Below the pieces are notes generated by a model. That model was not told where the DNA came from. It was given only the letters and a program-made list of their open reading frames with translations, and did not search any database. A program made the position numbers and the translations under genes. A DNA stretch of 54,376 nt from Candidatus Gastranaerophilaceae bacterium. Lineage in GTDB: Bacteria > Cyanobacteriota > Vampirovibrionia > Gastranaerophilales > Gastranaerophilaceae. Shown one piece after another: positions 2,737-47,695 of this stretch (within the stretch, counting starts at the first letter, position 1; every line of letters begins with the position of its first letter). The stretch spans positions 1 through 54,376 of the forward strand of contig JAZLBN010000024.1 in the NCBI GenBank assembly GCA_045613725.1, read 5' to 3'.

Positions 2737-3333
2737 ATGATTAGATATATTTTGAGTTCGATAATTGTATTGTTGCTAAGTTGTATCGGTAGTTGTTCGT
2801 TTGCTAGCGATATTGATATGCCTGCGAGTGGTGATTTGTGGGATAATTATGGTGCTAGTCAGGACTTCTATGGTCAAGATAAAAAAGGTGTATCAGATGC
2901 AGAATTTGATAAAGCTATAGAACAGGTTAAAGATAAACAAAATCGTGGATTTTTCGGACGTAAAAAAAAGAACAAAAATATACCTAAAGGTGAAGAATTT
3001 AGTCAAAGTAACGAGTCTGAAGTTTTAGAAGTTCATTCAGAAAAAGAAGTGTTTCCAGTTGTGAGTTTGCCTGTGGAGATTATTGTTGGTGATGGTATTT
3101 TACCTGTTGGACATTACCAAATTCAAGGAGAGCGACGAGGTGAGGATGTAATTTTAAAATTCTATCAGGCTCATAACTTGTGGGCAGAATTCCCTGCGAT
3201 AGAAACAACTGATGATTATGAAGAAGAAACTATAACTTTTGCAAGGTGGATTCCTGATGGAGAAAATTCTCTAAAAATAATTTATGGATCTCTGGATTTT
3301 AATGCCTATACGATAGTAAAAATTAAACAATAA
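2737..3333 (+). CDS. hypothetical secreted protein
   Basis: N-terminal signal peptide (MIRYILSSIIVLLLSCIGSCSFA), a basic KKKNKN patch and no recognisable domain. There is no SD; see the leaderless finding. Confidence 0.55.
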   Translation: MIRYILSSIIVLLLSCIGSCSFASDIDMPASGDLWDNYGASQDFYGQDKKGVSDAEFDKAIEQVKDKQNRGFFGRKKKNKNIPKGEEFSQSNESEVLEVHSEKEVFPVVSLPVEIIVGDGILPVGHYQIQGERRGEDVILKFYQAHNLWAEFPAIETTDDYEEETITFARWIPDGENSLKIIYGSLDFNAYTIVKIKQ

Positions 3334-3373
3334 ATAAAATGTAACGAATTGTTAACGCAATCCTTAAAAATAT

Positions 3374-3400
3374 TAAAGATTTCAATAAAAATGCCGTATA
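3374..3400 (+). promoter_or_regulatory. sigma-28 (FliA/SigD)-type promoter candidate
   Basis: TAAAGATT-N11-GCCGTATA compared with the consensus TAAAGTTT-N11-GCCGATAA: -35 is 7/8, the GCCG core is present, and TAAA-N15-GCCG spacing is exact. It ends ~48 nt upstream of ATG 3448. Confidence 0.45.
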
Positions 3401-3447
3401 CATGATTGAGCGCATAGTAATAACATGTTGAAAGGATTACGAAAACA

Positions 3448-5538
3448 ATGGGATTGGCAGCTTCACAAGCTAGATTTTTAGGAATAACAGCAAGAAAGGC
3501 TGACTGTGAATACAGATCAACCGAGCTTGCTCAAGAGAAGCTTGATATCACAAAACAAATAGGTGATATTTCTAATCAGTATGCGCAAGCGTTGAATGCG
3601 ACCAAATTGATGTGGTCACATGATGGGTTAGCAAATGATTTTGGGTTAAGTTATAGTTTGTTGATGTTACCGTCAGCTACTAATAATTACAACCCTTATA
3701 TGGTAACATCTCCATCAGGAGCAATTATTTTGAATAGTGAGTATGCTGCAGCCGCTAAAGCTGCTGGTATATCAAAAGCTGGTGGTGTTGGTTCTCAAGA
3801 TTCAAGAGATAAGTTTATTGCAGCTTTGGGTTATCAAGGTTTATTAACTGATGAAACTTCACGAGCTATAACTCAGTTTGATTATTCTGTAAATGACGTA
3901 GAATCTAAGGCTCAAGGTAAAATTGTATTTAATGAAACTTATGAAACTGGTGCAGATCAAGTTTCTTGGAATCCTTTAGCTGGTATGGGTGGTGAGCCTA
4001 TGGTTAAAGGTGGTACTGCTGAGATTATGACAATTACGGATCTTAGTTTAAGTTCTATTGGTCAAGCAAAGATTGATTGGATCAAGTCTATCTGTGAGGC
4101 TGGAGAAGTTTCAAAGATGGAAAAAGAGGCTGAAGAAGCAAGATATGATGAATTAATAAAAAATGCAAAATCTGGGTCTATAAATAATGATGTTATTTCC
4201 CAGTTACAACGTGATTTGAATAAATGCATTGAAAATGAACCTGATAATCTTAAAGAACAAGAAAGATTAGAAAATTTAATAGAGCAAGCTAAATGTTATT
4301 ATAATGATATTAACGGAGTTAATTTAGTTTATAAAGATGGTAAACAATTAACAGATACAAATGGTAAGTTGTTGACAAAATCAGATGCACTTGAAAATAT
4401 TTCAAACCAGCTTCTTGCTGACAAAACTGACTATAGTGCAACTGTTACAGAAAAGAAGCTTACAGAGGCGATTGAGACAACATCTAAAACAATAGGTGCT
4501 AAACTCTCAGTGGTTAATGGTGGCATTGTTGTTACAGATCAAGATGAGCTAGAAGATATGACAATTAGTGATGTCTTAAATAGAGATATTGTATTGATTT
4601 CAGATCAGGAAAATGAAGACTTTAGAAAAGAAGTATTAAACTTGTTTACTTCAATGCTTAAAAGTTTTGGATATTCCGGTACCGATAATTTATATGGTCA
4701 AGGTCTGTATGTAGATGATGTAGCAAACGAAGCTATGGATTTTGCTTATAAAATGATCGAAGATACTTATTTGAGAGTTGGCAGCAGTGTTAATATCGGA
4801 GTTAATACTAGTGGTTCAATGCAAGAGAATGCCGCGCATAAAGGTGCTATTGGTTACAATAGAATTGCAATTGGTAACAATTTAAAATTTAATTTTTCAA
4901 CTGGTAAGATTGAATCTGCTAAGCTTGTTGAAAATCCTGGGTTTAATGTTGAAAAACAAGGCCACGTTGCAGTCAGTTTGACTAACATGTTAAAATCATT
5001 CTTGACGTATTATGATAATTACCTAAATGGTGCAGATTCTCAATATGTTGTTGGTAATAGTGTTGAGACTTCAGTTTATGTAACTGATGATCCAAACTAT
5101 TCATATATAGTTCAGGATAATACTAATGTTGTTTCAGAAAATGACGAAAAATTAGCAGATTTCTTTGATCAATTGTATAACAATATTTTAGAACATGGCT
5201 GGAGAGAAGATGCGGCAATCGAAGATTCTGAGTATCTTGAAGCAACACTTAAAGATGGTCGTTATTCTATGAAATCTTTGAATGAAGATGGATATTATTA
5301 TCAATCAAGATATAATGAAACTGGTTATATTGTTGAGGTTTCTGATACAGATGCAATAGAACGAGCAGAGGCTGAATTTAGCTCTAAAAAGGCAGAATTA
5401 ACATATAAAGAAGATGCGATAGATTTAAAAACTAAAAAGGTTGATGCAGAACTTTCTGCTTTAACAACAGAATATGATACAGTAAAAAATCTGATATCAA
5501 AAACTATTGAAAAAACATTCGCAATGTTCCAAAATTAA
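3448..5538 (+). CDS. hypothetical 696-aa protein with helical N/C termini and a large variable central region (flagellar axial-protein-like layout; family not recognised)
   Basis: Long ORF with AAAGGA upstream. No signal peptide or TM segment. N-terminus MGLAASQARFLGITARKADCEYRSTELAQEKLDITKQIGDISNQYAQALNA. C-terminus ...KKVDAELSALTTEYDTVKNLISKTIEKTFAMFQN. The central region is Gly/Asn/Ser/Thr/Asp-rich. Confidence 0.8.
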   Translation: MGLAASQARFLGITARKADCEYRSTELAQEKLDITKQIGDISNQYAQALNATKLMWSHDGLANDFGLSYSLLMLPSATNNYNPYMVTSPSGAIILNSEYAAAAKAAGISKAGGVGSQDSRDKFIAALGYQGLLTDETSRAITQFDYSVNDVESKAQGKIVFNETYETGADQVSWNPLAGMGGEPMVKGGTAEIMTITDLSLSSIGQAKIDWIKSICEAGEVSKMEKEAEEARYDELIKNAKSGSINNDVISQLQRDLNKCIENEPDNLKEQERLENLIEQAKCYYNDINGVNLVYKDGKQLTDTNGKLLTKSDALENISNQLLADKTDYSATVTEKKLTEAIETTSKTIGAKLSVVNGGIVVTDQDELEDMTISDVLNRDIVLISDQENEDFRKEVLNLFTSMLKSFGYSGTDNLYGQGLYVDDVANEAMDFAYKMIEDTYLRVGSSVNIGVNTSGSMQENAAHKGAIGYNRIAIGNNLKFNFSTGKIESAKLVENPGFNVEKQGHVAVSLTNMLKSFLTYYDNYLNGADSQYVVGNSVETSVYVTDDPNYSYIVQDNTNVVSENDEKLADFFDQLYNNILEHGWREDAAIEDSEYLEATLKDGRYSMKSLNEDGYYYQSRYNETGYIVEVSDTDAIERAEAEFSSKKAELTYKEDAIDLKTKKVDAELSALTTEYDTVKNLISKTIEKTFAMFQN

Positions 5539-5604
5539 AAATTTGAATAAATAGATTTGATGAACCTTTTATACGAGGGTAATCCGGAGGTCGGAGAGTG
5601 TGCT

Positions 5605-9098: not shown

Positions 9099-9172
9099 TT
9101 TGAGGTAGTTGTATTTATTACACTAGACTTTGATGTAAAAATACGCTATAATGAATGTATACTTGTAGACTA

Positions 9173-10045
9173 ATGAGGATTAAGAGTACTGTGTTTAAAA
9201 ATACGAAAAAATCTGCTTTTACCTTAGCTGAAATTATGGTAACATTAGGGTTAATTGGCGTCATTTCTGCGTTAACAATCCCTACGTTAGCTTTGAACTA
9301 TAGAGCAAAAGTTTTAGAAGAACAATATCGCTCAACATTTAGTGATATCAGACAAATTGGTTCGATGGTAAATTATGACCATTATGATGTTGGTGATTAT
9401 GCTAATAAAGTTACGCTTACTAAATGGGAAGAAGATTTTGTTTCTCGACTAAATGGTGCTAGTCAATTGACATCTTCATCTAGTTCTGGTCAAATTACTA
9501 CAGCTATAAGAGATTATTATAGCAATAGTGGTGCAACTGCAGGTCCTTTTTATTTTACACAATCTGCTGAAGGTCAGCGTGAAGCTGTGGCTTCTCATGT
9601 CTGCAATGATGGTGATGTTTGGCTTGATAATAAAGGTAGAGTTTGGTCTTTTAATTCGGAAAATAGAACTATTTGTGTAGATATTAACGGTTCAGCAAAT
9701 CCAAATCGCTATAATATGGATATTTTTGCGTTTATACCAATGAACTCAAAGCAAATAGCTACTTGGGTTTATAATGATTCTGAACATCACACGGATTACT
9801 CTGGCGCAATTGTTGCGTGTGATATTGAACAATTAGCAAGAAGAGGTGTAGGTGATGTAGTTCCAGAAATGGATGAAAACGGTCGTTATACAAAGGGTGA
9901 AGGTTCAGCATTAGACTATTGTCCATTTAATGAACCTATGGAAAATATTGCAGCAGTAAATAGTTATTCTCCAGGTAAATCTGCAAGAAATAAAGATGTA
10001 GATATTACTAAAAATTACTGGAAAGATTATATTGAATACAAATAA
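9173..10045 (+). CDS. prepilin-type N-terminal domain protein (type IV pilin/pseudopilin-like)
   Basis: MRIKSTVFKNTKKSA|FTLAEIMVTLGLIGVISALTIPTL is a class III signal-peptide-like N-terminus with Glu at +5. It shares the family motif CVDINGSANPNRYNMDIFAF with the other two pilin-like genes. The start was trimmed from the track's 9155 to Met at 9173. Confidence 0.8.
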   Translation: MRIKSTVFKNTKKSAFTLAEIMVTLGLIGVISALTIPTLALNYRAKVLEEQYRSTFSDIRQIGSMVNYDHYDVGDYANKVTLTKWEEDFVSRLNGASQLTSSSSSGQITTAIRDYYSNSGATAGPFYFTQSAEGQREAVASHVCNDGDVWLDNKGRVWSFNSENRTICVDINGSANPNRYNMDIFAFIPMNSKQIATWVYNDSEHHTDYSGAIVACDIEQLARRGVGDVVPEMDENGRYTKGEGSALDYCPFNEPMENIAAVNSYSPGKSARNKDVDITKNYWKDYIEYK

Positions 10046-12996: not shown

Positions 12997-14301
12997 ATGA
13001 GGTTAAAAAAAGCTTTTGATTCAGGTGAATTTGATAGTTTTTTCAATCAAAATTTTAAGAGCTTGAAATGTAGTGCTTTTACCTTAACAGAAGTTTTGTT
13101 GGCAGTAACTATTGTTGGTATAATTGCTGCGTTAGTTTTACCAGCAACTGTAAGTAAGTTTAATGATAATATTCTTAATACTGCACATAAGCGAATAAAA
13201 GAAAGTGTGCAAAATGCATTGGATTCATTAGTTGTAACAGAAAATAAAACCTCGTTTTTTACAACTTCAATGTACTCTTTAACCGAACCAGAAAATTATG
13301 ATAATTCAAGTGGGAAATTTTTAAAACGTAATTTTAGGGTCTCAAAATATTGTGACGGTGAGAATAGGGCAGAATGTTTTAGCAAAGAATATTATACTAC
13401 TAACGGTACAAAAAGAGAAATCTATACTCCAAAATATGAGGGTTCTTGTGCAATATTAAAAAGCGGTGCGAGTATTTGTATTGCACCTCAAATTGCTTTA
13501 GATAAACCAGTTAGAGGTATTGTGGATGTTAATGGGATTAAAGGTCCAAATGTTTTTGGTCGAGATTTGAGACAATTTGTAATTGACCTGAAAATTAGGA
13601 CAACTAAACTAGCAGAAGTTGAAGAAGTAAATCTTACACCGAATCCAAAATTGGAAGAGGTGGAAGAACCACCACCACCACCGCCACCACCACCTGACCC
13701 TTGTGAGGAAAATCCAACAGGTCTAGAATGTTGTAAAACTAAAGCAACATTGGATGCTGGTGATGCTTGTTGTGGCTATTCAGAAATGAAGAAGATTCAT
13801 GATGCTTGTAATATAAAAACTGTAATTGGAGAATTAAGGTTTGGATGTTTCGGTTATGATTATTCTGGTAGATCAAACCCTAATGTGCCCTCAACATGTA
13901 CGTTTTATGGGGAGAATCTTCCGTCAGGAGAAAATTTTTATTACACTAGTAATTTAGGTAGTGGTTCTGCTATACCTGAGAGTGGTAGTATAAATCAATC
14001 TTTTAACTTTGTTATGAAAACAGGTGGACCTTATTTAAGTAGTCTTGGTCTTAGTAGTGAAAAACACTCTTACTCAGCATGTCAATATAGTAGTTTAGAT
14101 AGACCAAATAAAGATTATTGTGGAGGTGGCAGTTGTTTACCTCGTCAGGATGTTCGCATATATTTAGAATTAGAATATTTAGCAAATAAAAGTGGAGAGT
14201 TTATATCTTATACAGGAAAAGTTGCTTGTTATGTTTATGGAGATGTTTCAGGTAGTAGTAGTTCTGTGTATATAAGAGGACGTTCAGGAAAACCTGAATA
14301 A
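12997..14301 (+). CDS. prepilin-type N-terminal domain protein with Pro9 linker and C-terminal 12-Cys module
   Basis: ...KSLKCSA|FTLTEVLLAVTIVGIIAALVLPA. Pilin-family motif GIVDVNGIKGPNVFGRDLRQFVI. Nine consecutive Pro codons at 13669-13695. The downstream 200 aa contain 12 Cys (CEENPTGLECC..., DACCGY..., DYCGGGSC...). SD AAGGGGA. Confidence 0.8.
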   Translation: MRLKKAFDSGEFDSFFNQNFKSLKCSAFTLTEVLLAVTIVGIIAALVLPATVSKFNDNILNTAHKRIKESVQNALDSLVVTENKTSFFTTSMYSLTEPENYDNSSGKFLKRNFRVSKYCDGENRAECFSKEYYTTNGTKREIYTPKYEGSCAILKSGASICIAPQIALDKPVRGIVDVNGIKGPNVFGRDLRQFVIDLKIRTTKLAEVEEVNLTPNPKLEEVEEPPPPPPPPPDPCEENPTGLECCKTKATLDAGDACCGYSEMKKIHDACNIKTVIGELRFGCFGYDYSGRSNPNVPSTCTFYGENLPSGENFYYTSNLGSGSAIPESGSINQSFNFVMKTGGPYLSSLGLSSEKHSYSACQYSSLDRPNKDYCGGGSCLPRQDVRIYLELEYLANKSGEFISYTGKVACYVYGDVSGSSSSVYIRGRSGKPE

Positions 14302-14378: not shown

Positions 14379-15161
14379 CTAAATTATATTAGCAAAGCTT
14401 AAGAAGTATTCTTCTATGATGTTCATTAACATTGGAAGAATCCAAATCATTATGGCTGCGCCTAGTACAGGTTTAAATAAGAAGCTTAATTGGAATACGT
14501 TAACTTGTGGAGCTGTTCTTGAAATAACCCCAAGGATAATATCTTGAGCAAGCGTTGCAAGTAATACTGGAGATGCTATTTGAAGTCCCATATATAAAGT
14601 ATTTGATGACATTTTTATGAGTAAATCCATTTTTATTAGTTGTGCTAATGGCACTGCAGAAGCATACATAGGAAAGATTTCAAAACTTCTAACAAGAGCT
14701 TTGAATAACCAATAAATACCACCTAAATGAATAAATATAAGTATTCCCATCAACGATACCATCTTAGTAAGGATAGATACTTGTGCAGAGGTAGTTGGGT
14801 CAAGTGTTGTTGCTGAAGATAAACCCATTTGCATATTTATCATTTCAGCACCGCAATCAATTGCGATTGTAATAAGTTGTGCCATATAGCCAATCATTGC
14901 ACCAACAACCACATTTAATAATATGGATAGCATAAACGAATCACATTCGGTTAGACATTTTTCTGGAGATAAAAAAGGTACAATAAAAATTGTAATAATC
15001 AATGCAAATGGTACCTTTACTAAAGGTGGAATGTCTTTTCTGTTAAATATAGGACAGAATCTAAAAAATCCGATCATACGTGCAAATACAAGAGCTCCTG
15101 CCATTAGGTAGGTGTTTATTTTGGGAAACATTTGCATTATTGCGCTGTATAATTCGTTCAT
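14379..15161 (-). CDS. fliR: flagellar type III export gate protein FliR
   Basis: Polytopic membrane protein directly downstream of fliQ (3-nt gap). FliR-like N-terminal block VFARMIGFFRFCPIFNRKDIPPLVKVPFALIITIFIVP. Confidence 0.85.
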   Translation of the reverse strand: MNELYSAIMQMFPKINTYLMAGALVFARMIGFFRFCPIFNRKDIPPLVKVPFALIITIFIVPFLSPEKCLTECDSFMLSILLNVVVGAMIGYMAQLITIAIDCGAEMINMQMGLSSATTLDPTTSAQVSILTKMVSLMGILIFIHLGGIYWLFKALVRSFEIFPMYASAVPLAQLIKMDLLIKMSSNTLYMGLQIASPVLLATLAQDIILGVISRTAPQVNVFQLSFLFKPVLGAAIMIWILPMLMNIIEEYFLSFANII

Positions 15162-15164
15162 TTA

Positions 15165-15653
15165 TTATCTACCAAGAATTTTTATTGCTTCTACTTGTGT
15201 TGGTTTTGGGCTGGCTGTTTTAGCTGCCGGAGTATATCGTTCTTTTTTATAATTATCTATATATGGAACTTTTCCTGGGTTTTTCATTAGGCCATCGATA
15301 TTATCCATGTTTTTGAATCTATCTTTCATTTCGTATTCAAAAGGTTTTGTATATTTGTGATAGCCGGCTTCAAGCACAAAATCTTGGCTTTGAGGCACGT
15401 GTTGGAATGCTAATACCATACCCTCTTGGAACAGGTTTGTTAAAAGTCTTATAAATCCAACGCCCCCAATTATGATTACAAGGAATACGCCAAGAATTTT
15501 AGGTGCCGCTGCGATTGTTTGTTCCTGAACCTGAGTGACGGCTTGTAAAATACCTACAACAAGACCAATACCAGCTGCAACTAATACACATGGCATTGAT
15601 ATTGTTAACATCATTAAAAATCCTTTTGCTAAATATTCTAGTAAAACTTCCAT
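15165..15653 (-). CDS. fliQ: flagellar export gate protein FliQ with ~75-aa C-terminal extension
   Basis: The first ~85 aa match FliQ (MPCVLVAAGIGLVVGILQAVTQVQEQTIAAAPKILGVFLVII). The ORF then continues for ~75 hydrophilic residues (…HVPQSQDFVLEAGYHKYTKPFEYEMKDRFKNMDNIDGLMKNPGKVPYIDNYKKERYTPAAKTASPKPTQVEAIKILGR). Confidence 0.85.
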   Translation of the reverse strand: MEVLLEYLAKGFLMMLTISMPCVLVAAGIGLVVGILQAVTQVQEQTIAAAPKILGVFLVIIIGGVGFIRLLTNLFQEGMVLAFQHVPQSQDFVLEAGYHKYTKPFEYEMKDRFKNMDNIDGLMKNPGKVPYIDNYKKERYTPAAKTASPKPTQVEAIKILGR

Positions 15654-15668
15654 AATTAACCTTCTATA

Positions 15669-16307
15669 CTAGTTGTAACTTGTAACAAGTCCTTGTACTA
15701 TTAGTGCCCAACCATCAACTGCAATAAATATTAATAACTTAAATGGCATCGAAATGATTGTAGGAGATAACATAAACATCCCCAGTGCCAGTAGTATGTT
15801 TGCTACTACTAAGTCAAGAATAATAAATGGTACAAATATTATAAAACTTATTTCAAATGATGTTTTTAATTCACTGATTATGTATGCAGGAGCGACTTCC
15901 CATATTGAAATATCATCAGGTGATGTCACTTGTTTCTTATGTGAAAGTTCTATAAAAAAGTCCAAATCAGATTTTCTGGTTTGTTTTAACATAAATTCTT
16001 TTAATGGTTTTGAGCCTTCATAAACTGCAGCTATCATATCTTGGTTTTTCTGATAAGGAACAGAGCCCATATCGTACATTTTTTGGAATGTTGGCCCCAT
16101 AGTAAAGAATGTCAAAATTATTGATAAACCGATAATTACAATTGCAGGCGGTACTTGTTGTGTACCCATTGCTGTTTTTAACATTGCAAATACTATGACA
16201 AATCTAAGAAAACTTGTCATACAGCAAAATATGAATGGTAGTAATGAAAACATAGACATTACTATCAACATTTGTAATATAGGATTTAAATTTTGTAATT
16301 GATCCAT
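15669..16307 (-). CDS. fliP: flagellar export gate protein FliP
   Basis: SFLRFVIVFAMLKTAMGTQQVPPAIVIIGLSIILTFFTMGPTF is the hallmark FliP block, and the C-terminal ISMPFKLLIFIAVDGW is also typical. Confidence 0.92.
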   Translation of the reverse strand: MDQLQNLNPILQMLIVMSMFSLLPFIFCCMTSFLRFVIVFAMLKTAMGTQQVPPAIVIIGLSIILTFFTMGPTFQKMYDMGSVPYQKNQDMIAAVYEGSKPLKEFMLKQTRKSDLDFFIELSHKKQVTSPDDISIWEVAPAYIISELKTSFEISFIIFVPFIILDLVVANILLALGMFMLSPTIISMPFKLLIFIAVDGWALIVQGLVTSYN

Positions 16308-16320
16308 AATTTATCTATCC

Positions 16321-16869
16321 TTATAATTCGTTTATTTTCATTGCCATTTCTTTCATTGTAGAAAATCCGTGGCTTTTTCTTGTATCAAAATCTAATGTAA
16401 CAATATTTTTTTGATTTTTAGGTGTTTCAATATTTGAAGTAGCTCTTTTATCTAAACCTCTTCTTGTAGAGTTCGGGTTTCTACCTTTTATTGGTTCTAG
16501 ATGAACTTGTTGTGGTAAAACTTGAATTTCATCTTCAAAAGTTGTTGGTAGCTGATCTTGATTTTCTAATCCGATATTTCTAAATCTTTCTAGATGTTCA
16601 ATGTCTTTTGTAGAAGTAGTGTTTTCTAGTTTTGATATTAGAGTTGTTCTATCAATATCTGAAGCTATTAAAAATTTTTCATTGCCAGCACGTACAACAT
16701 GTAGGGTTTTTCTTGGAGATAAGCTCATAGTTTCTTCTACACTTAAAAATTTTGTGTTGTTACTACGCATAGTTCCATCTGTAAATTTTTTGAATACAAA
16801 TACTGCAAAGCTTATCAATCCAAGCATTGCCATTGTATATACAGTAAAATTAGCTATGTATCCACCCAT
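16321..16869 (-). CDS. fliO: FliO-like flagellar biosynthesis protein
   Basis: Single N-terminal TM segment, then a FliO-like core (LSPRKTLHVVRAGNEKFLIASDIDRTTLI). It sits in the usual position between fliN and fliP. Confidence 0.65.
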   Translation of the reverse strand: MGGYIANFTVYTMAMLGLISFAVFVFKKFTDGTMRSNNTKFLSVEETMSLSPRKTLHVVRAGNEKFLIASDIDRTTLISKLENTTSTKDIEHLERFRNIGLENQDQLPTTFEDEIQVLPQQVHLEPIKGRNPNSTRRGLDKRATSNIETPKNQKNIVTLDFDTRKSHGFSTMKEMAMKINEL

Positions 16870-16907
16870 ATATCTGTTTATCTCCCCTTATTTAATAATT
16901 TATGTTA

Positions 16908-18098
16908 TTAAATATTTTCATCTTCTAGTTCAAAGTCGCTGTAATCAAATTCTTCATCTTCACTTTCAGGATATGATTCTTCATATTGTTGTTGAGGAGC
17001 TTCATCTTGATACTCTCCTTCTTCTTCGTACGAACCTTCTTCGTATTCTGAATTGTTTTGAATTTGAGAACGTTCAGCGGTGCCTTCTGCAATTATGTTG
17101 TTAATTTTTACACCGTATCTATCATTTACTATTACTAGTGATCCGCTTGCAATAGGTTTACCTTCAACTTTTAGTGTTACATTGTTATCGTATAAAGATG
17201 TTAAGTCTACAACTAAACCATCTTCAATGTTTTTAAGTTCTCCGAGGGATATTTTTACAGAATCAAACTCTGCATACATTTCAACTTCTATACTATCCCA
17301 TATGTTTTGCTGAGTATCACTCATGTCATCTCCTCCGTCGTCGTTATCTTCTGGTATTAGTAAATCCATGTTTGGGTTTAATTTAACAGGTAGGTCACTA
17401 CCATTTATTGTTAATGTTAATTTCTCAATGTTGCTATTATCAAAGATTACAACATCATCTTCTTCAAGGTTTTTTACATCATAAAGTGGAACTCTTGTTT
17501 TCCCTACATAAACTTTTGCAAAAGTTTCAGTTCTTGGGAAGGATGTTTGTGAGAATTTTTCACTACTAGATGTTATTATTTCTGGTTCTAGTAAAGCTAA
17601 AGGTAATGTTACGATAACTTTGCCTGTTCTATGATTATATTCTTCAACCTCTTTGATTAAAAATGTTAGATGTATTAAATCAAAATTCACCCTTTTAAGT
17701 TCGTTAGCCGGTGGTGGATTTAGAACTTTTTTTAGGTTTTCAAACATAAAATCATTAAATGAAGTAATAACTTTTGCTTCTAGCTCTGAAATTTTATTGA
17801 TGTTGAATTTGTTTTTTGATTCACCAAGAGCTTTATTCAGAATTAATGCGATTGCTTTATCAGTTAATCTGAAAAACATATCGTATTCTTGGTTTATTCT
17901 AATTTTGGTTACAAAACAAGATTCATTATCGATAAGACAGTTTATGTTTTTACTTACTCCAATGAGTTCTAGTTTGAATTCAGGATTAAAAAATTCGTCA
18001 TAGGATTCCTGAATAATATTAGGGAACACATTTTGATACCAATGATACTGTTGGTATAATTGCTTTGTAGATATTGAATTTTGTAATTTGTCTTCCAT
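16908..18098 (-). CDS. flagellar C-ring/switch protein with two SpoA (FliM-C/FliN-type) domains and an acidic tail
   Basis: SpoA-like 1: FAKVYVGKTRVPLYDVKNLEEDDVVIFDNSNIEKLTLTINGSDLPVKLNP. SpoA-like 2 (FliN): VEMYAEFDSVKISLGELKNIEDGLVVDLTSLYDNNVTLKVEGKPIASGSLVIVNDRYGVKINNII. Roughly 50-aa Glu/Asp/Tyr tail. First gene of the fliOPQR operon. No LSQxEIDxLL CheY-P-binding peptide at the N-terminus. Confidence 0.75.
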   Translation of the reverse strand: MEDKLQNSISTKQLYQQYHWYQNVFPNIIQESYDEFFNPEFKLELIGVSKNINCLIDNESCFVTKIRINQEYDMFFRLTDKAIALILNKALGESKNKFNINKISELEAKVITSFNDFMFENLKKVLNPPPANELKRVNFDLIHLTFLIKEVEEYNHRTGKVIVTLPLALLEPEIITSSSEKFSQTSFPRTETFAKVYVGKTRVPLYDVKNLEEDDVVIFDNSNIEKLTLTINGSDLPVKLNPNMDLLIPEDNDDGGDDMSDTQQNIWDSIEVEMYAEFDSVKISLGELKNIEDGLVVDLTSLYDNNVTLKVEGKPIASGSLVIVNDRYGVKINNIIAEGTAERSQIQNNSEYEEGSYEEEGEYQDEAPQQQYEESYPESEDEEFDYSDFELEDENI

Positions 18099-18400: not shown

Positions 18401-19171
18401 ATGAAAAAGAGTTCAGCATTCACTTTGGCAGAAGTGTTGATTACATTAGGTATTATTGGTGTGGTTGCAGCGATGACAATACCAAACTTAATAGCAAATA
18501 CTAATGGTGCAAAATACCGTTCAGGATTCAAAAAAGCTATCTCAACATTAAACCAAGCAGGTCTAATGGCACAAGCTCAATATGATTTTGATTTTGCAGG
18601 TGCTTCTGATTATTGCGATGTAAATAACGGAGGTTCAGAACATCCAGAATCAAAAATGTCTTTCTGTGCAATTTTTAATGGAACACTAACTGGTCAAACA
18701 TATCTAGGAAGAGTATCAAATATAAAAAGACAATCAAATACTTCAGCAGGTTCAAGTGGTGCTGCATATACAATTTCGAATGCATCAGATGGCGGTATAT
18801 GGAATGATTATACAAAATATATAGCATATTCTTTAGCGGATGGTTCTATTGTTGCATTTTATGAATATGCGTCTGGTTGTTCACAACCAATAGGACGTCC
18901 TATGGATATTACTTCTGCAGGTAGTTATCTTGCATATTGTTCAGGGTTTATTGATGTAAATGGTACAACATTGCCTAATAAAGCTGTTACTTGTACAAAA
19001 CCAGGTGATGGTAACACTGCTAAAAATAAAGCATCTCGTAATGTAGACAAACCTTGTATTGTAGAAAATAATGCAACTAATATGACAGATGTATTCCCTG
19101 TGATTTTCCACGATGCAACAGTTGAACCAGCAACAGATGCTGCTAAATATGTTTTAATGACTTCTAAATAG
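18401..19171 (+). CDS. prepilin-type N-terminal domain protein (type IV pilin/pseudopilin-like)
   Basis: MKKSSA|FTLAEVLITLGIIGVVAAMTIPNL has a short leader and Glu at +5. Family motif CSGFIDVNGTTLPNKAV. SD AGGGAGA. Confidence 0.85.
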   Translation: MKKSSAFTLAEVLITLGIIGVVAAMTIPNLIANTNGAKYRSGFKKAISTLNQAGLMAQAQYDFDFAGASDYCDVNNGGSEHPESKMSFCAIFNGTLTGQTYLGRVSNIKRQSNTSAGSSGAAYTISNASDGGIWNDYTKYIAYSLADGSIVAFYEYASGCSQPIGRPMDITSAGSYLAYCSGFIDVNGTTLPNKAVTCTKPGDGNTAKNKASRNVDKPCIVENNATNMTDVFPVIFHDATVEPATDAAKYVLMTSK

Positions 19172-31306: not shown

Positions 31307-34300
31307 ATGGAATGTCCTAAATGTGGAGCAGAGATAAATAAAAGTGCAATGGTGTGCCCTAACTGTAAGAAGGTACTCAAAATCATTTGCCCTGTTTGTA
31401 AAACTGTTAATGAAAAAAATACTTGTAAAAAGTGTGGTGAAATTTTAGTCACTAAATGTGCTAAATGTGGCAAAATCAACTTGATGAAAAATAAGCAATG
31501 CGTAAAATGTGGGTATTCAAATGAAATAAGTGCTGTTTTGGGAGAGTCCAATACTGATAGTTTTGCAATTTTAAGGATCGATTTTCCTAATAGTGATGTA
31601 GTAAAAGCAAAACTTGGTTCTAATAAATTATATCAAAAGTTTAGAGCAAATTTAGATGCTCTTATTGCAACCTATGTTCAATCAATAAATGTAAGACGAC
31701 AGATAATAAATAATGATATTTATGTCATAAGGTTTAATAAAGATTATACTCTTTCTGCTTCAGCAAATTCTGCTATTTTAACAACTATTGAGCTTATAAA
31801 TATAATTACTAAATTGAATGTGAAATTGTTGAACAAAAAAGGGGTTGCATTAAAATGTAATTTTACGATAATGCAACGTGATGCGGATAAAAATCCATAT
31901 GATATTGATACCAGATTCCATGCAAATATGCTCTATCAAAGTTCTTCCAAGTCAATGAAAGCTTTGGATTCTTTTCAGGTTATAACAGATGAAAGTTTTT
32001 ACGAATATTATATTGAACATTATAAAATGGAGTCATTAGATTCAGCATTAGTTGATGGAGTAATGAAAAGATTTTACGAAATGGATTTGAAAGAATTTGT
32101 AAATATCGGGGATATTTTACGAAATGAAGCTTTAAAAGAAAAAGACGATTCTGAAGAAATGGAAGTTCCTACGTTTGTTCAATCCGCATTGATAGATCAA
32201 GAAAAAATTACTCAAGATGTATTAAATAATGAATATAATCTTTTAGAAGAAGATATTTATGATGTGCAAATGATTAATTTTGAGGAAATAAATTGTACGT
32301 TTATCAAAACAGAAAGTTTTAATGTGTTGGATTGTATAGTACAAGTTTTGCAGCAGGTTCCAAAAGGTGTATTTGCGCTAAAAGCTTCAACTATGTATCA
32401 ACCATATACTTTAAAGGTTTTATCAGCTGTAGATGAATTAGGTATATATGACAATATTGTTCCGATTACTTGTCATGATGATATGAGGTATTCTCCATAT
32501 TCATTTTTTAGGGATTTAGTATCATCAGTTTTTGAATATACTATTTCTCAAAAATTATTTGATACAAATGATTTTTCTATGTTTGCTTCTGTAGATCAAA
32601 AAGGATTGATAAGGGATTTGATAAATTTAAATCAAAGACCAATGAACAATATGGAAGAAACAAGAGAATATTATTGTAATGTTTTCTTATCTTTATTACA
32701 AGCTATTCCTAACACTTTGATTTATATAGAGAATTTTGAAAAAATAGACGAAAGTTCAATGTTTGTTTTGAAACAATTATTTGAACATTTGGATGAATTA
32801 AATATTAGTTATTTAATATCTTATGATAAAGAGTATTCATTGCATCATCATGCTCATTTCTTGCTTTCAAGACCTTATTATACGGAGGTTACATTGACGC
32901 CAACTCCATTTGAGGTAATTGTTGGTGCAGATTCTAACTTTTATAAAAATATTTTAACTGATTTTTATTTCCAACGAATTGTAAAATACGCTTGTGGTAG
33001 TACGTTATTTTTAGATTATGCTATTCAATATTTAGTAGAATCTGAAGTATATCAATATACAGAAGATTCTATAATAATGGTTAATCCAAAAACTTTGATT
33101 ATACCATCGAGTTTAGAAAAACTTATTAAACGTCGTTTGAATTTATTAAAAGATGATACAGAAACAATAAAATTTTTGACTACAATGGTACTTCTTGGTA
33201 CTCGTGTTGATGAAAAAACCATCTTATCGTTAAATATAAATAATTGGGAAAAATTAGGTGAAAATCTTTCAAATATGGGATATTTGTATTCCTATAATAA
33301 CTGTATCTATTTCCCTAATTATAATTTGCTTCGTAAATGTTTGCTAGAAGTTGTAAAACCTGAGGATTTACAAGCTGTAGCACAGAATTTGTTTGACTTA
33401 GTTTACTCAAATAATATGCCAAATCCAACAAAAGCATATTTGCATGATTTAGTGGGTGATACTCAAAAAATTATTACCGAATGGGAAAATTTAGCAAATA
33501 TTAATTTATCAATGGGAGATTTTTCTTCATATTTAAACTGTTCTGTTGAAATATTAAATTCTCTAAATAAGTATTCTTCCAGCTGGTCTAGTGAAAATTT
33601 GATGCAATATAAACAATCTCTTTATGATAATGTTGCGAATAATATGTATGAGTATAATCCTGAAAGAACTCAAGTACTTGCGGAAGAAACTTTAAATAAT
33701 CTTAAACAGTTGAATAATATAGATAAATACGTGGTATTTTGTACCAGAATGATACAAGGTGCAATGGAACAGGGTGATTATCAATATGCAATGAATTTAA
33801 TTCATAACGTATTATCTTCACTTGATAATTCATCGATAAATCCAGTTGCCCCTAACTTTAATTTACACTTTTTGTTAATGTCAGTGATTTATGTGAAGGT
33901 ATTATTTAATATTGGTGCGTATGAAGACTGTCTAGATATTGGTTATAATGTTTTAAATGTTTTAGATGATGAAAAAATCAATTCAATAAATTATACAATT
34001 ATTTCTAAAGAAGAATTTAAATATTTAATCACTGAATGTGTTGGTTATGTTGCGTTAGTCGATGTTTTGACAATGAAGGAAGATGTTGAAGAATTTTTAG
34101 AAATTTCAAACAAACTTTTAGGATTTATTCCTGAAAAATATTCTATTTTTGTTCAATTACAACGATTAATAAAAGGACAGGACGTAAAAGTTTCTTCAAA
34201 TATGATTGGTGAAGATCCGTTTTCTGCAATTTTGTATTACATAATAAATGCATTTGCTTCTTATAAAAATAACTCAGAAGCTTTTGCCAGAGAAATATAT

Positions 34301-34882
34301 AAAGCAAAATTAGTATCAAAATTGACAATGATGCATTGTTTTGAGTTGTTTGCAGATCTGATGATTGGTTATGCGTATATAAATTTAGGTTCTTATAAAA
34401 AAGCTTCATTTATGCTTTATAAAATAGTGAAAACTACAAAAGAAAAGGGTTTAAAAGCTTTGGAACATATCGCTTGGTATGTGATGAGTGTATTACATCT
34501 TTCTGAGGGTAAATATGATTTGGCATATGGAGTCTTAAATAACTCGAATATTCAAATGGAAAAAAATGCTATGATTAGTGAATATTTGACAATGTTAAAT
34601 AAAGTTAACATGTTTAAAGTTTTGATGTGTATAGATTCTCGAGAGCAGGCGCAGATTTGTATGAATCAGGCTAATAATATTGTTCAAAAATATGGTATAA
34701 ATTTTAATCTTAATATTGACATTAAAAAAATTCTGTTGGAAAATTCTGGTAACAGCAGGGCTGAAAGAATGACAAATCAAGTTCAGTCCACTGAAGTCGT
34801 AAGAGAGAGTATAGAACAAGTTTCAGGATTTACCACTGAAAATGATGATGTAGTGAATCCTATGGAATTTTTCTCAGAATAA
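31307..34882 (+). CDS. 1191-aa multidomain protein: three zinc ribbons + degenerate class-III cyclase-like domain + degenerate AAA_16/STAND-like domain + helical (TPR-like) C-terminal half
   Basis: N-terminus CPKCG..CPNC / CPVC..CKKCG / CAKCG..CVKCG. FAILRIDFPNS...NNDIYVIRFN resembles the cyclase-homology blocks VTVLFADIVGFT...GDAVMAVF. LIYIENFEKIDESSMFVLKQLF resembles the AAA_16 Walker-B block (LVLEDLHWADxxS) with D replaced by N. No GxxxxGK[ST] is seen. The long helical C-terminal region has TPR-like periodicity. Confidence 0.8.
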   Translation: MECPKCGAEINKSAMVCPNCKKVLKIICPVCKTVNEKNTCKKCGEILVTKCAKCGKINLMKNKQCVKCGYSNEISAVLGESNTDSFAILRIDFPNSDVVKAKLGSNKLYQKFRANLDALIATYVQSINVRRQIINNDIYVIRFNKDYTLSASANSAILTTIELINIITKLNVKLLNKKGVALKCNFTIMQRDADKNPYDIDTRFHANMLYQSSSKSMKALDSFQVITDESFYEYYIEHYKMESLDSALVDGVMKRFYEMDLKEFVNIGDILRNEALKEKDDSEEMEVPTFVQSALIDQEKITQDVLNNEYNLLEEDIYDVQMINFEEINCTFIKTESFNVLDCIVQVLQQVPKGVFALKASTMYQPYTLKVLSAVDELGIYDNIVPITCHDDMRYSPYSFFRDLVSSVFEYTISQKLFDTNDFSMFASVDQKGLIRDLINLNQRPMNNMEETREYYCNVFLSLLQAIPNTLIYIENFEKIDESSMFVLKQLFEHLDELNISYLISYDKEYSLHHHAHFLLSRPYYTEVTLTPTPFEVIVGADSNFYKNILTDFYFQRIVKYACGSTLFLDYAIQYLVESEVYQYTEDSIIMVNPKTLIIPSSLEKLIKRRLNLLKDDTETIKFLTTMVLLGTRVDEKTILSLNINNWEKLGENLSNMGYLYSYNNCIYFPNYNLLRKCLLEVVKPEDLQAVAQNLFDLVYSNNMPNPTKAYLHDLVGDTQKIITEWENLANINLSMGDFSSYLNCSVEILNSLNKYSSSWSSENLMQYKQSLYDNVANNMYEYNPERTQVLAEETLNNLKQLNNIDKYVVFCTRMIQGAMEQGDYQYAMNLIHNVLSSLDNSSINPVAPNFNLHFLLMSVIYVKVLFNIGAYEDCLDIGYNVLNVLDDEKINSINYTIISKEEFKYLITECVGYVALVDVLTMKEDVEEFLEISNKLLGFIPEKYSIFVQLQRLIKGQDVKVSSNMIGEDPFSAILYYIINAFASYKNNSEAFAREIYKAKLVSKLTMMHCFELFADLMIGYAYINLGSYKKASFMLYKIVKTTKEKGLKALEHIAWYVMSVLHLSEGKYDLAYGVLNNSNIQMEKNAMISEYLTMLNKVNMFKVLMCIDSREQAQICMNQANNIVQKYGINFNLNIDIKKILLENSGNSRAERMTNQVQSTEVVRESIEQVSGFTTENDDVVNPMEFFSE

Positions 34883-46597: not shown

Positions 46598-47695
46598 TTA
46601 ACCTTGTGATGTGCCGTGGTAGATACCTCTCATCATTTGTTCAAGCTCTTGCTTGTTATCAGAATAGGCAATAGCCATTTCTTTGGTTACTTTACCTTCT
46701 TCATAAAGTTTGTATAATGACATGTTCATAGTAATCATACCGTTGAAAGAACCTTTTTTAACAAGTTCGTAAATTTGCTCTAATTCATCTTTTTGAATAA
46801 AGTCTTTTACGGTTGGTGTAACTACTAATACTTCAGCCGCTGGAGCTCGAGAGCTTCCTTCAGCCATAGGAACAAGTTTTTGAGAAACTGTACCTCTAAG
46901 AGTTGCTGCGATTTGGCTACGAACGAATGATCTTTCATTTGGATCGAATAAGTTGATAATTCTGGCAACTGTTTGAACTGCATCGTTTGTGTGGATTGTT
47001 GAAACAACAAGGTGACCAGTTTCAGCTGCTTTTAATGCAGCTTCAACAGTTTCTCTGTCCCTGATTTCACCGATAAAGATAACGTCAGGGTCTTGTCTCA
47101 ATGCGTATTTAACACCGTCTGAGAATGATGGTGTATCGATTAACAGTTGACGTTGAGAAACGATAGATTTTTTATTGGAAAAAATGAACTCAACTGGGTC
47201 TTCAATTGTAACAATATGTTTAGCTGCAGTTGCGTTCATATAGTCAATTAATGATGCAATTGTTGTTGATTTACCAGAACCAGTAGGTCCAGTAACCAGA
47301 ACTAATCCGTTGTTAAATGATGCGAATTCTTCTAGAGTCTCAGGTAATTGTAATTCCTTAAATGATTTAATGTAATAAGGAATTGCACGGATAACCATTG
47401 CAGTTTTTCCTAGTTGACGGCTCATGTTAACACGGAATCTTGAGCAACCTGGGATTTCATAAGAAAAGTCGATATCAAAAAATCTTGTGATACGATCTTT
47501 TAAGTGTGGAGGCGCAACAGTTTTTATAATGAATTCAATATCTTCTGCATCTAGTGGCGGTAGATTAATTCTCATAATTTGTCCGGATACACGTATTGCT
47601 GGTCTTTCACCTTCGCAAATGTGTGCATCTGATGCGCCGACAGATACTGCTTGTCTTAAAAAATCCTCTATATAAAAATCGTTTGTTGCCGTCAT
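46598..47695 (-). CDS. pilT: type IV pilus retraction ATPase, PilT family
   Basis: ASDAHI, Walker A GPTGSGKSTT, Asp box IVTIEDPVEF, Walker B DPDVIFIGEIRD, His box LVVSTIHTN. SD GGAGAGGA. Confidence 0.9.
   Translation of the reverse strand: MTATNDFYIEDFLRQAVSVGASDAHICEGERPAIRVSGQIMRINLPPLDAEDIEFIIKTVAPPHLKDRITRFFDIDFSYEIPGCSRFRVNMSRQLGKTAMVIRAIPYYIKSFKELQLPETLEEFASFNNGLVLVTGPTGSGKSTTIASLIDYMNATAAKHIVTIEDPVEFIFSNKKSIVSQRQLLIDTPSFSDGVKYALRQDPDVIFIGEIRDRETVEAALKAAETGHLVVSTIHTNDAVQTVARIINLFDPNERSFVRSQIAATLRGTVSQKLVPMAEGSSRAPAAEVLVVTPTVKDFIQKDELEQIYELVKKGSFNGMITMNMSLYKLYEEGKVTKEMAIAYSDNKQELEQMMRGIYHGTSQG

Follow-up and report, generated by a model that had tools for sequence, protein, structure and literature searches.

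Reuse of the flagellar export apparatus for secretion is already known. It lies at the origin of the injectisome (PMC3459982), the basal bodies of Buchnera represent reused flagellar export (PMC8109811), and Lysobacter enzymogenes OH11, which has no functional fliC, still secretes toxic proteins via its flagellar export system (PMC7688988). The Gastranaerophilales (Melainabacteria), which are non-photosynthetic cyanobacteria, are widespread gut symbionts; in the majority of their genomes, a partial and so far unexplained set of flagellar genes is retained (PMC4040986; preprint 10.64898/2026.04.24.720558). We analyzed a stretch of 54,376 nucleotides (nt) from Candidatus Gastranaerophilaceae bacterium (assembly GCA_045613725.1, contig JAZLBN010000024.1, forward strand; the whole stretch is referred to below as the window), in which a gene at 3448-5538 (+) encodes a 696-amino-acid (aa) protein. 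In the literature searched, we found no description of this protein family, of its family-wide composite promoter, of a sigma factor linked to flhB or of the apparent Melainabacteria regulon reported here. Our favored reading, which we hold tentatively, is that the protein is a sigma-28-dependent late substrate of the often reduced flagellar type III export apparatus, located outside the cell and using its conserved ends for export and assembly.

The reduced state of that apparatus is documented. In most Gastranaerophilales, the flagellar gene set is incomplete according to Soo et al. (2014), whose table lists for the koala and human genomes only FlgB, FlgC, FlgF, FlgG, FliE, FliJ, FlhA, FlhB, FliI, FliP, and FliR; missing there are FliC, FlgE, FlgK, FlgL, FliD, FlgH, FlgI, FliF, FliG, FliM, MotA, and MotB. 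One of these genomes, Zag_111, whose column in the table we assigned from IMG id ranges, is reported with FlgB, FlgC, FlgF, FlgG, FlhA, FlhB, FliI, FliP, and FliR only (Soo et al. 2014). According to a 2026 preprint (10.64898/2026.04.24.720558), approximately 25% of Gastranaerophilales have full flagellar sets, and the other approximately 75% retain a subset (flhB, fliI, and flgG are examples) postulated to serve secretion. Canonical flagellins occur in some Melainabacteria (PMC3787301).

The present system resembles the filament-less, reused export systems of Lysobacter OH11 and Buchnera in that gate genes outlast flagellin function and non-flagellar secretion has been proposed. Unlike in those systems, candidate cargo is marked by a specific sigma-28 promoter that is shared throughout the family and accompanied by an additional operator, and the most conserved candidate is flagellin-like in architecture. 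A promoter signature of this kind would make the purpose of the leftover flagellar machinery testable, the leading cargo candidate being an abundant, fast-evolving, flagellin-shaped family of the 696-aa type. Filament, tip, and translocator proteins of injectisomes (such as EspA) carry no Sec signal, have terminal helices that pair, fill polymerizing or tip roles, and are co-regulated with effectors. Judged by this general knowledge, the 696-aa protein is similar in its terminal helices, its lack of a Sec signal, and its co-regulation with candidate effectors. It differs in three respects: homology was not detected, genes specific to injectisomes were not seen, and the apparatus at hand has a flagellar origin (the window has genes of the FliO and FliN type, and relatives are reported to have rod genes).

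Composite promoter and candidate regulon

The gene is preceded by a promoter of the sigma-28 (FliA/SigD/WhiG) type. On direct reading, its -35 element (TAAAGATT; 3374-3381) and -10 element (GCCGTATA; 3393-3400), both on the + strand, are separated by a spacer of 11 nt (3382-3392, +), and 47 nt lie between the end of the -10 element and the ATG at 3448. From typical spacing, transcription is predicted to start at approximately 3405-3410. A preliminary description of this DNA had proposed a sigma-28-type promoter at 3374-3400, approximately 48 nt upstream of open reading frame (ORF) 3448-5538; the promoter is borne out by direct reading and by conservation, the ORF is real and encodes 696 aa, and only the distance needed correction.

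The motif lies 34 to 58 nt 5' of the start codon in each of the 59 sequences that were checked (two distant members besides the window and its homologues) and is also kept 5' of three more remote members (L068, L069, and L071; approximately 25% protein identity). Across the 59 sequences, the columns of the family consensus, TAAAG(T/A)TT-N11/12-GCCG(T/A)A, are near-invariant, the GCCG among them, and the spacer is 11 or 12 nt. This is the form of the sigma-28 class: a TAAA(GTTT) -35 and a GCCGATAA-like -10, 11 to 12 nt apart (15 to 16 nt from TAAA to GCCG). Within the window, the exact core TAAAGWTT-N11-GCCG occurs once versus 0.02 times expected from shuffles; when one mismatch is allowed, there are 2 matches versus 0.46 expected, so the bare motif is by itself suggestive only. 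The decisive point is that its position is conserved across orthologues, and we therefore take the promoter as real. It is a genuine, deeply conserved sigma-28-type promoter; the alternative raised at the outset, that an unrelated coiled-coil protein happens to follow an AT-rich promoter look-alike, is rejected for the promoter itself.

A palindromic element (TGTAACGAATTGTTAAC; 3340-3356, +) lies upstream of the two boxes, with the family consensus TGTAAC-N5-GTTACA. It was found in 59 of 62 family promoters, and in 55 of the 59 promoters that bear it, its 3' end is 16 to 17 nt 5' of the -35 element. This constant phasing points to a dimeric regulator that works together with the sigma factor, and the palindrome, with its center roughly 60 nt 5' of where transcription is predicted to start, probably binds such a putative regulator. 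It is one base longer than the cyanobacterial NtcA site (GTA-N8-TAC). Scored with a position-weight model of the full composite promoter, the site reaches 44.9, and nothing else in the window, the G+C content of which is 31.5%, exceeds 12.

The promoter is followed by a conserved 5' leader (3401-3447, +) with a Shine-Dalgarno sequence, GAAAGGA, at 3430-3436. In an alignment of 37 leaders, TCGAAAGGATT is near-invariant and no conserved secondary structure is predicted. Approximately two-thirds of the orthologues carry a second AAGGA further 5' in the leader; in the window copy, the motif at the ribosome-binding site is the sole one. The twin AAGGA of the orthologue leaders resembles the CsrA sites of flagellin mRNAs. 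No terminator is predicted 3' of ORF 3448-5538.

The composite promoter is not confined to this family. When metagenomes were scanned for the sigma-28 boxes together with the palindrome's right half, 120 stretches were returned, 101 of low G+C content and 19 of high G+C content. The search pattern did not specify the left half of the palindrome; even so, 51 of the 101 low-G+C matches had at least 4 of its 6 bases, versus 2 of the 19 high-G+C chance matches. Members of the 696-aa family, including paralogues of 265 to 293 aa, follow 28 of the 101 low-G+C sites, and at least 27 sites precede other ORFs. These encode a recurrent family of 135 to 180 aa, a 595-aa CHAP-domain protein (Pfam E value of 2.5e-11), HExxH-motif proteins, EF-hand-motif proteins, and several small products, none of which has a signal-peptide-like N terminus by a simple hydrophobicity check. 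A peptidoglycan hydrolase of the CHAP type can act only outside the cytoplasm and, lacking a Sec signal, needs another exit, which would fit export through the flagellar gate. The recurrent family of 135 to 180 aa (L100, L097, L090, L087 at 2447-2899 [-], and others) has a C-terminal NGS.P.Y.GELL-like motif and no Pfam match; in L087 and L164, it is encoded just 3' of a canonical 835-aa flagellin, a position usually held by flaG. The palindrome and sigma-28 boxes thus look like the mark of a regulon of lineage-specific, signal-less proteins, and the sharing of the promoter with other such proteins strengthens the reading of the 696-aa protein as a late type III substrate.

An apparent promoter of this kind before fliD (L177) was rejected as a chance match inside the flaG of an unrelated bacterium. 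Sigma-28-type promoters also precede an ORF of 51 aa (MLKKITTPSNN...) and one of 57 to 69 aa (...ERDFNV...) in L018, L112, and L143, and in L018 and L039, one stands before a short non-coding CCTCC stretch that ends in a terminator-like hairpin, possibly a small RNA; the corresponding L018 positions are 15690-15845, 4357-4509, and approximately 1211-1000 (- strand). It is pure speculation that the 51-aa or the 57- to 69-aa protein might be a candidate FlgM-like anti-sigma factor.

Protein architecture, family, and sequence divergence

The protein encoded at 3448-5538 (+) has no signal-like hydrophobic stretch at its N terminus when the sequence is read by eye, in agreement with the preliminary description. 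An AlphaFold2 model (mean predicted local distance difference test score [pLDDT] of 76.7) places long helices at residues 2 to 52 and 634 to 695, enclosing a mixed alpha/beta body, and a 501-aa relative was modeled with the same plan. The N-terminal helix (aa 1-52; 3448-3603, +) is the most conserved part of the protein (MGLAASQARFL.ITARKADCEY...). In the family alignment, it is followed by a conserved N-proximal region (aa 53-215; 3604-4092, +), a hypervariable middle with many insertions and deletions (aa 216-504; 4093-4959, +), and a conserved C-proximal region with the motifs NNILEHGWRED and DGYYYQ.RYNETGY (aa 505-633; 4960-5346, +), before the C-terminal helix (aa 634-696; 5347-5535, +). 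The helical termini proposed initially are thus found in the model, and the layout of conserved ends around a variable core holds. The middle is not, as had been supposed, mere Gly/Asn/Ser/Thr-rich filler: approximately 160 N-proximal and approximately 130 C-proximal residues form conserved folded regions, and only residues 216 to 504, approximately, are hypervariable. Nor does the protein have the central coiled-coil rod that makes up the bulk of an intermediate-filament-like protein, its predicted long helices being only those at residues 2 to 52 and 634 to 695, around a mixed body.

Homologues are numerous. One search returned 530 and another returned 2,714 cluster representatives at an E value of ≤0.001, and in both, distant relatives included, they are named only "hypothetical protein." Relatives are encoded at 59 loci identified in a genome scan; the taxa named for these are mostly Gastranaerophilales, Melainabacteria, and "Cyanobacteria bacterium," with a few others and many entries of "uncultured bacterium." The family is large and unnamed, and all sequences in which it was seen are Melainabacteria-like. 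Member lengths run from 265 to 843 aa and vary through changes in the middle only. Both terminal helices are retained in the paralogues of 265 to 293 aa, and the C-terminal helix is also retained in remote members. The paralogues of 265 aa and 293 aa (metagenome loci L137 and L118) consist of the two terminal helices and a small middle and are possibly the family's minimal version.

Divergence is concentrated in the middle. Mean pairwise identity is 0.95 for aa 1-30, 0.81 for aa 31-60, and approximately 0.9 over the last 120 residues, and it falls to 0.14 to 0.56 over aa 151-510. The window protein shares 57 to 67% identity with close orthologues in aa 1-215 and 23 to 29% in aa 216-504; with the closest genomes (L002, L004, L007, and L040), the values are 64 to 67% for aa 1-215, 24 to 25% for aa 216-504, and 69 to 75% for aa 505-696, and the flanking CorC and RarA proteins of these genomes are 92 to 97% identical to those of the window. 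Among the four genomes themselves, the flanking proteins are 97 to 99% identical versus 55 to 70% for the family protein. A nucleotide-level comparison of L002 with L004 gave 38 to 60% identity for the middle, approximately 80 to 95% for the flanks, and 92% for the promoter and first codons. Conserved ends with a fast-evolving middle are the pattern of flagellins and other exposed antigens, and we infer that the hypervariable middle is an exposed face. Should the protein indeed be exposed, host immunity or phage would likely target it, and it would also be useful as a strain-typing marker.

The adjacent 5' gene (2737-3333, +) encodes a 198-aa protein with a lipoprotein-type signal (LLSC), which also evolves fast (50 to 78% identity versus 76 to 97% for CorC and RarA). 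The synteny of CorC, this lipoprotein, and RarA was considered as a functional clue and rejected; it reflects relatedness, and other family members lie in unrelated contexts.

Export machinery, sigma factor, and candidate roles

Candidate export machinery is encoded in the window at 14379-18098 (-), where a fliN-like gene (396 aa), fliO, fliP, fliQ, and fliR are supported by matches to Pfam FliMN_C, FliO, FliP, Bac_export_3, and Bac_export_1, as expected from the flagellar export operon noted there earlier. These genes may be functionally tied to the 696-aa protein. They stand isolated between pilin-like genes, with fliM, flhB, and flhA not adjoining. The fliQ ORF is 162 aa long, and its Bac_export_3 match spans residues 5 to 75 only; the length expected of FliQ is approximately 90 aa.

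A FliA/WhiG-type sigma gene is found beside flhB in relatives. It encodes a sigma factor of 225 aa directly 3' of flhB on the same strand, approximately 7 kb from the family gene (flhB-sigma locus in L032 at 1149-2927 [+] and in L021 at 2823-4592 [-]), and the gene order flhB, sigma, histidine kinase is repeated on the long contigs L072 to L074 (8888-12439). The best family of this sigma factor is TIGR02479 (FliA_WhiG), with an E value of 2.7e-22 and an end-to-end alignment, and its sequence is 91 to 100% identical among the 120 matches listed.

The family is present where much of the flagellum is reported missing. Zag_111 (L013) has an intact family gene with its promoter and is reported without flagellin, hook, and motor genes, although gate and rod genes are reported (and, in relatives, the sigma factor is retained); by the checks set out in the preliminary description, this finding and the lack of structural or profile similarity to axial proteins count in part against its proposal. 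A flagellin would be expected to co-occur with hook, junction, cap, and motor genes, and in Zag_111 a family member is present where these are reported missing. A motile-filament role is thus unlikely in Zag_111, and in genomes without flagellin, hook, and motor, the protein cannot be part of a motile flagellum. Since the gene persists in such relatives, its product probably belongs to a reused export machine, either as cargo or as an outer component. Locus L087 encodes the canonical flagellin of 835 aa mentioned above (3094-5601, -), which has a long middle of repeated GG(L/I)(V/A)G; no obvious sigma-28 box was seen within 170 nt upstream of it, so the motif could not be demonstrated to drive flagellin in this lineage.

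Together, these observations lead us to prefer, tentatively, the reading of the protein as a late export substrate, the broadest part of the original proposal of a "filament, junction or other late T3SS substrate" (T3SS, type III secretion system) and the part that still fits best. On this reading, the family gene would be transcribed as a single-gene unit by RNA polymerase with the FliA/WhiG-type (sigma-28) factor, assisted by a regulator that binds as a dimer to the phased palindrome upstream. The product, which lacks a Sec signal, would be exported late via the FlhA, FlhB, FliP, FliQ, FliR, and FliI gate of the Gastranaerophilales. Export and contacts with other subunits or with the machine would depend on the terminal helices and the conserved regions next to them, and the hypervariable middle would face outward and diversify under host immunity or phage pressure. 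Where lineages have lost flagellin, hook, rings, and motor, it would serve as a main cargo or distal structure of a reused secretion machine rather than in a motility organelle. Export via the flagellar gate, surface exposure, and any polymerization are steps that we infer.

Several results weigh against this reading. The search for likeness to flagellar axial proteins gave none: in Pfam searches of 18 diverse members at an E value of <10, no flagellar family appeared, only scattered coiled-coil noise; Foldseek against PDB returned 0 matches for the 696-aa model and 3 matches at an E value of >6 for the model of the 501-aa relative; and hhalign comparison of the family termini and the full alignment with nine E. 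coli axial proteins (FliC, FlgK, FlgL, FliD, FlgE, FlgG, FlgB, FlgC, and FlgF) gave probabilities of <2%, a weak negative since the E. coli profiles are thin. A cysteine, C20, is invariant within the N-terminal helix; flagellins usually have no cysteine. The sigma factor scores 79.6 bits versus an NCBIfam curated cutoff of 189.6, its gene is known from related genomes and none lies within the 54-kb window, and the family gene never adjoins flagellar genes in the loci examined. The absence of the L/P rings and hook from the reported reduced sets leaves the substrate with no explained outer-membrane route. Sigma-28-family factors also drive non-flagellar programs, such as that of WhiG in Streptomyces and that of sigma-28 in Chlamydia.

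The individual searches (Pfam, NCBIfam, hhalign, PDB sequences, and Foldseek) agree that the protein is not detectable as flagellin, FlgK, FlgL, or FliD, just as the preliminary description had failed to recognize flagellin, FlgK, or FlgL signatures. The 696-aa protein has no match in Pfam, NCBIfam, or PHROGs; a profile search against PDB sequences gave one meaningless match at an E value of 5, and Foldseek against viral structures gave nothing below an E value of 0.6. Neither Flagellin_N/Flagellin_C nor D0/D1 likeness was found (hhalign probability against E. coli FliC, 0.1%), Pfam found neither FliD_N nor FliD_C (hhalign probability, 1.2%), and the family termini gave hhalign probabilities of <1% against E. 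coli FlgB, FlgC, FlgE, FlgF, FlgG, and FlgK. The similarity of the termini to axial proteins that had been envisaged thus finds no structural or profile support. By regular-expression scan, the ANNLAN-type motif of Flg_bb_rod is absent, and approximately 1 Mb of family loci contains no flagellin or rod/hook motif. The N-terminal GL.A.Q..L was considered as the start of a rod/hook/FlgK motif and rejected, as profile comparison gave no support.

Compared with flagellin (FliC/Hag; PF00669 and PF00700), the family is alike in its sigma-28-type promoter, the absence of a Sec signal, its conserved helical ends around a hypervariable, size-variable middle, and its evolution at a rate much faster than that of neighboring genes. 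It is unlike flagellin in showing no sequence, profile, or fold likeness, in its conserved cysteine, in the absence of the N-terminal signature (E. coli SSGLRINSAKDDAAG) by regular-expression scan, and in the presence of a member in a genome reported without hook, cap, junction, ring, and motor genes. FlgK, FlgL, and FliD are likewise proteins of 300 to 700 aa with terminal helices and are late flagellar export substrates; unlike them, the family matches no Flg_bb_rod, Flg_bbr_C, or FliD model, and its hhalign probabilities against the E. coli proteins are <2%.

These comparisons bear on the idea that the protein is a true filament subunit, a lineage-specific, non-homologous replacement for flagellin or hook that polymerizes through its terminal helices on the distal rod of the basal body into an appendage, one that does not rotate where the motor is lost. 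Such a subunit would account for conserved terminal helices of approximately 50 and 60 aa with adjoining conserved regions around an insert of approximately 140 to >600 aa, for the sigma-28 promoter, for the retention of the rod genes FlgB, FlgC, FlgF, and FlgG where hook and filament genes are missing, and for a strong, conserved Shine-Dalgarno sequence that fits an abundant product. We nevertheless consider it unlikely, given that there is no fold or profile likeness to any axial protein, that no cap, junction, or chaperone partner was identified, and that outer-membrane ring genes are absent from the reported reduced sets; canonical flagellins in other Melainabacteria (PMC3787301; L087) also mean that replacement is not general. 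If it does polymerize, the protein would be a new type III-secreted filament subunit and a living example of a flagellum becoming a secretion system. An elaboration to which we assign a similarly low probability is that, in gut Gastranaerophilales, a stripped basal body (gate plus rod, lacking hook, filament, rings, and motor) has independently been turned into a secretion device under the control of the sigma factor and the palindrome regulator, with the family as its distal or filament subunit of non-flagellin fold beside CHAP cargo; if true, secretion machines would have arisen from flagella by a second path, in parallel with the one that led to the injectisome.

As probable as the filament subunit, in our judgment, is a protein with a structural or regulatory function in the cytoplasm or at the envelope, belonging to a sigma-28 program that is unrelated to type III export and modeled on the WhiG-type regulons of non-flagellated bacteria. 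In several phyla, sigma-28-family factors control genes other than flagellar ones, no linkage of the family gene to flagellar genes occurs in the loci examined, its N-terminal helix has the conserved cysteine, and the extra operator, together with the histidine kinase beside the sigma gene, points to a signal-responsive regulon. However, a middle with approximately 25% identity beside neighbors that are 92 to 99% identical would rarely be expected of an internal protein, flhB is the partner of the sigma gene, and the CHAP hydrolase without a signal peptide, encoded behind the same promoter, needs a non-Sec exit. Somewhat less probable is that the protein is a secreted, non-polymerizing effector or adhesin, one of many cargoes, whose termini serve export and chaperone binding. 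The hypervariable middle, the sharing of the promoter with varied lineage-specific proteins (CHAP-domain, HExxH-motif, and EF-hand), and the Lysobacter precedent (PMC7688988) are consistent with this role, but the family has a much wider distribution and stronger conservation of its two ends than the other genes behind the promoter (28 of the 101 low-G+C sites), and its conserved C-terminal helix of 60 aa is unexpected in a simple effector. Type III export signals are established to be N-terminal.

Pilin-like and other genes of the window

The window also encodes large proteins (256 to 434 aa) with prepilin-type N-terminal methylation motifs and a PilT/PilB-type ATPase (9155-10045, 12997-14301, and 18401-19171 [+]; 46598-47695 [-]). 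In L068 and L069, remote members of the 696-aa family are encoded just 3' of pilin-like genes. A link between the two was rejected, as a hairpin resembling a rho-independent terminator and the family gene's own promoter intervene in both sequences. A 1,191-aa protein encoded at 31307-34882 (+) has an N-terminal double zinc ribbon as its sole recognizable feature.

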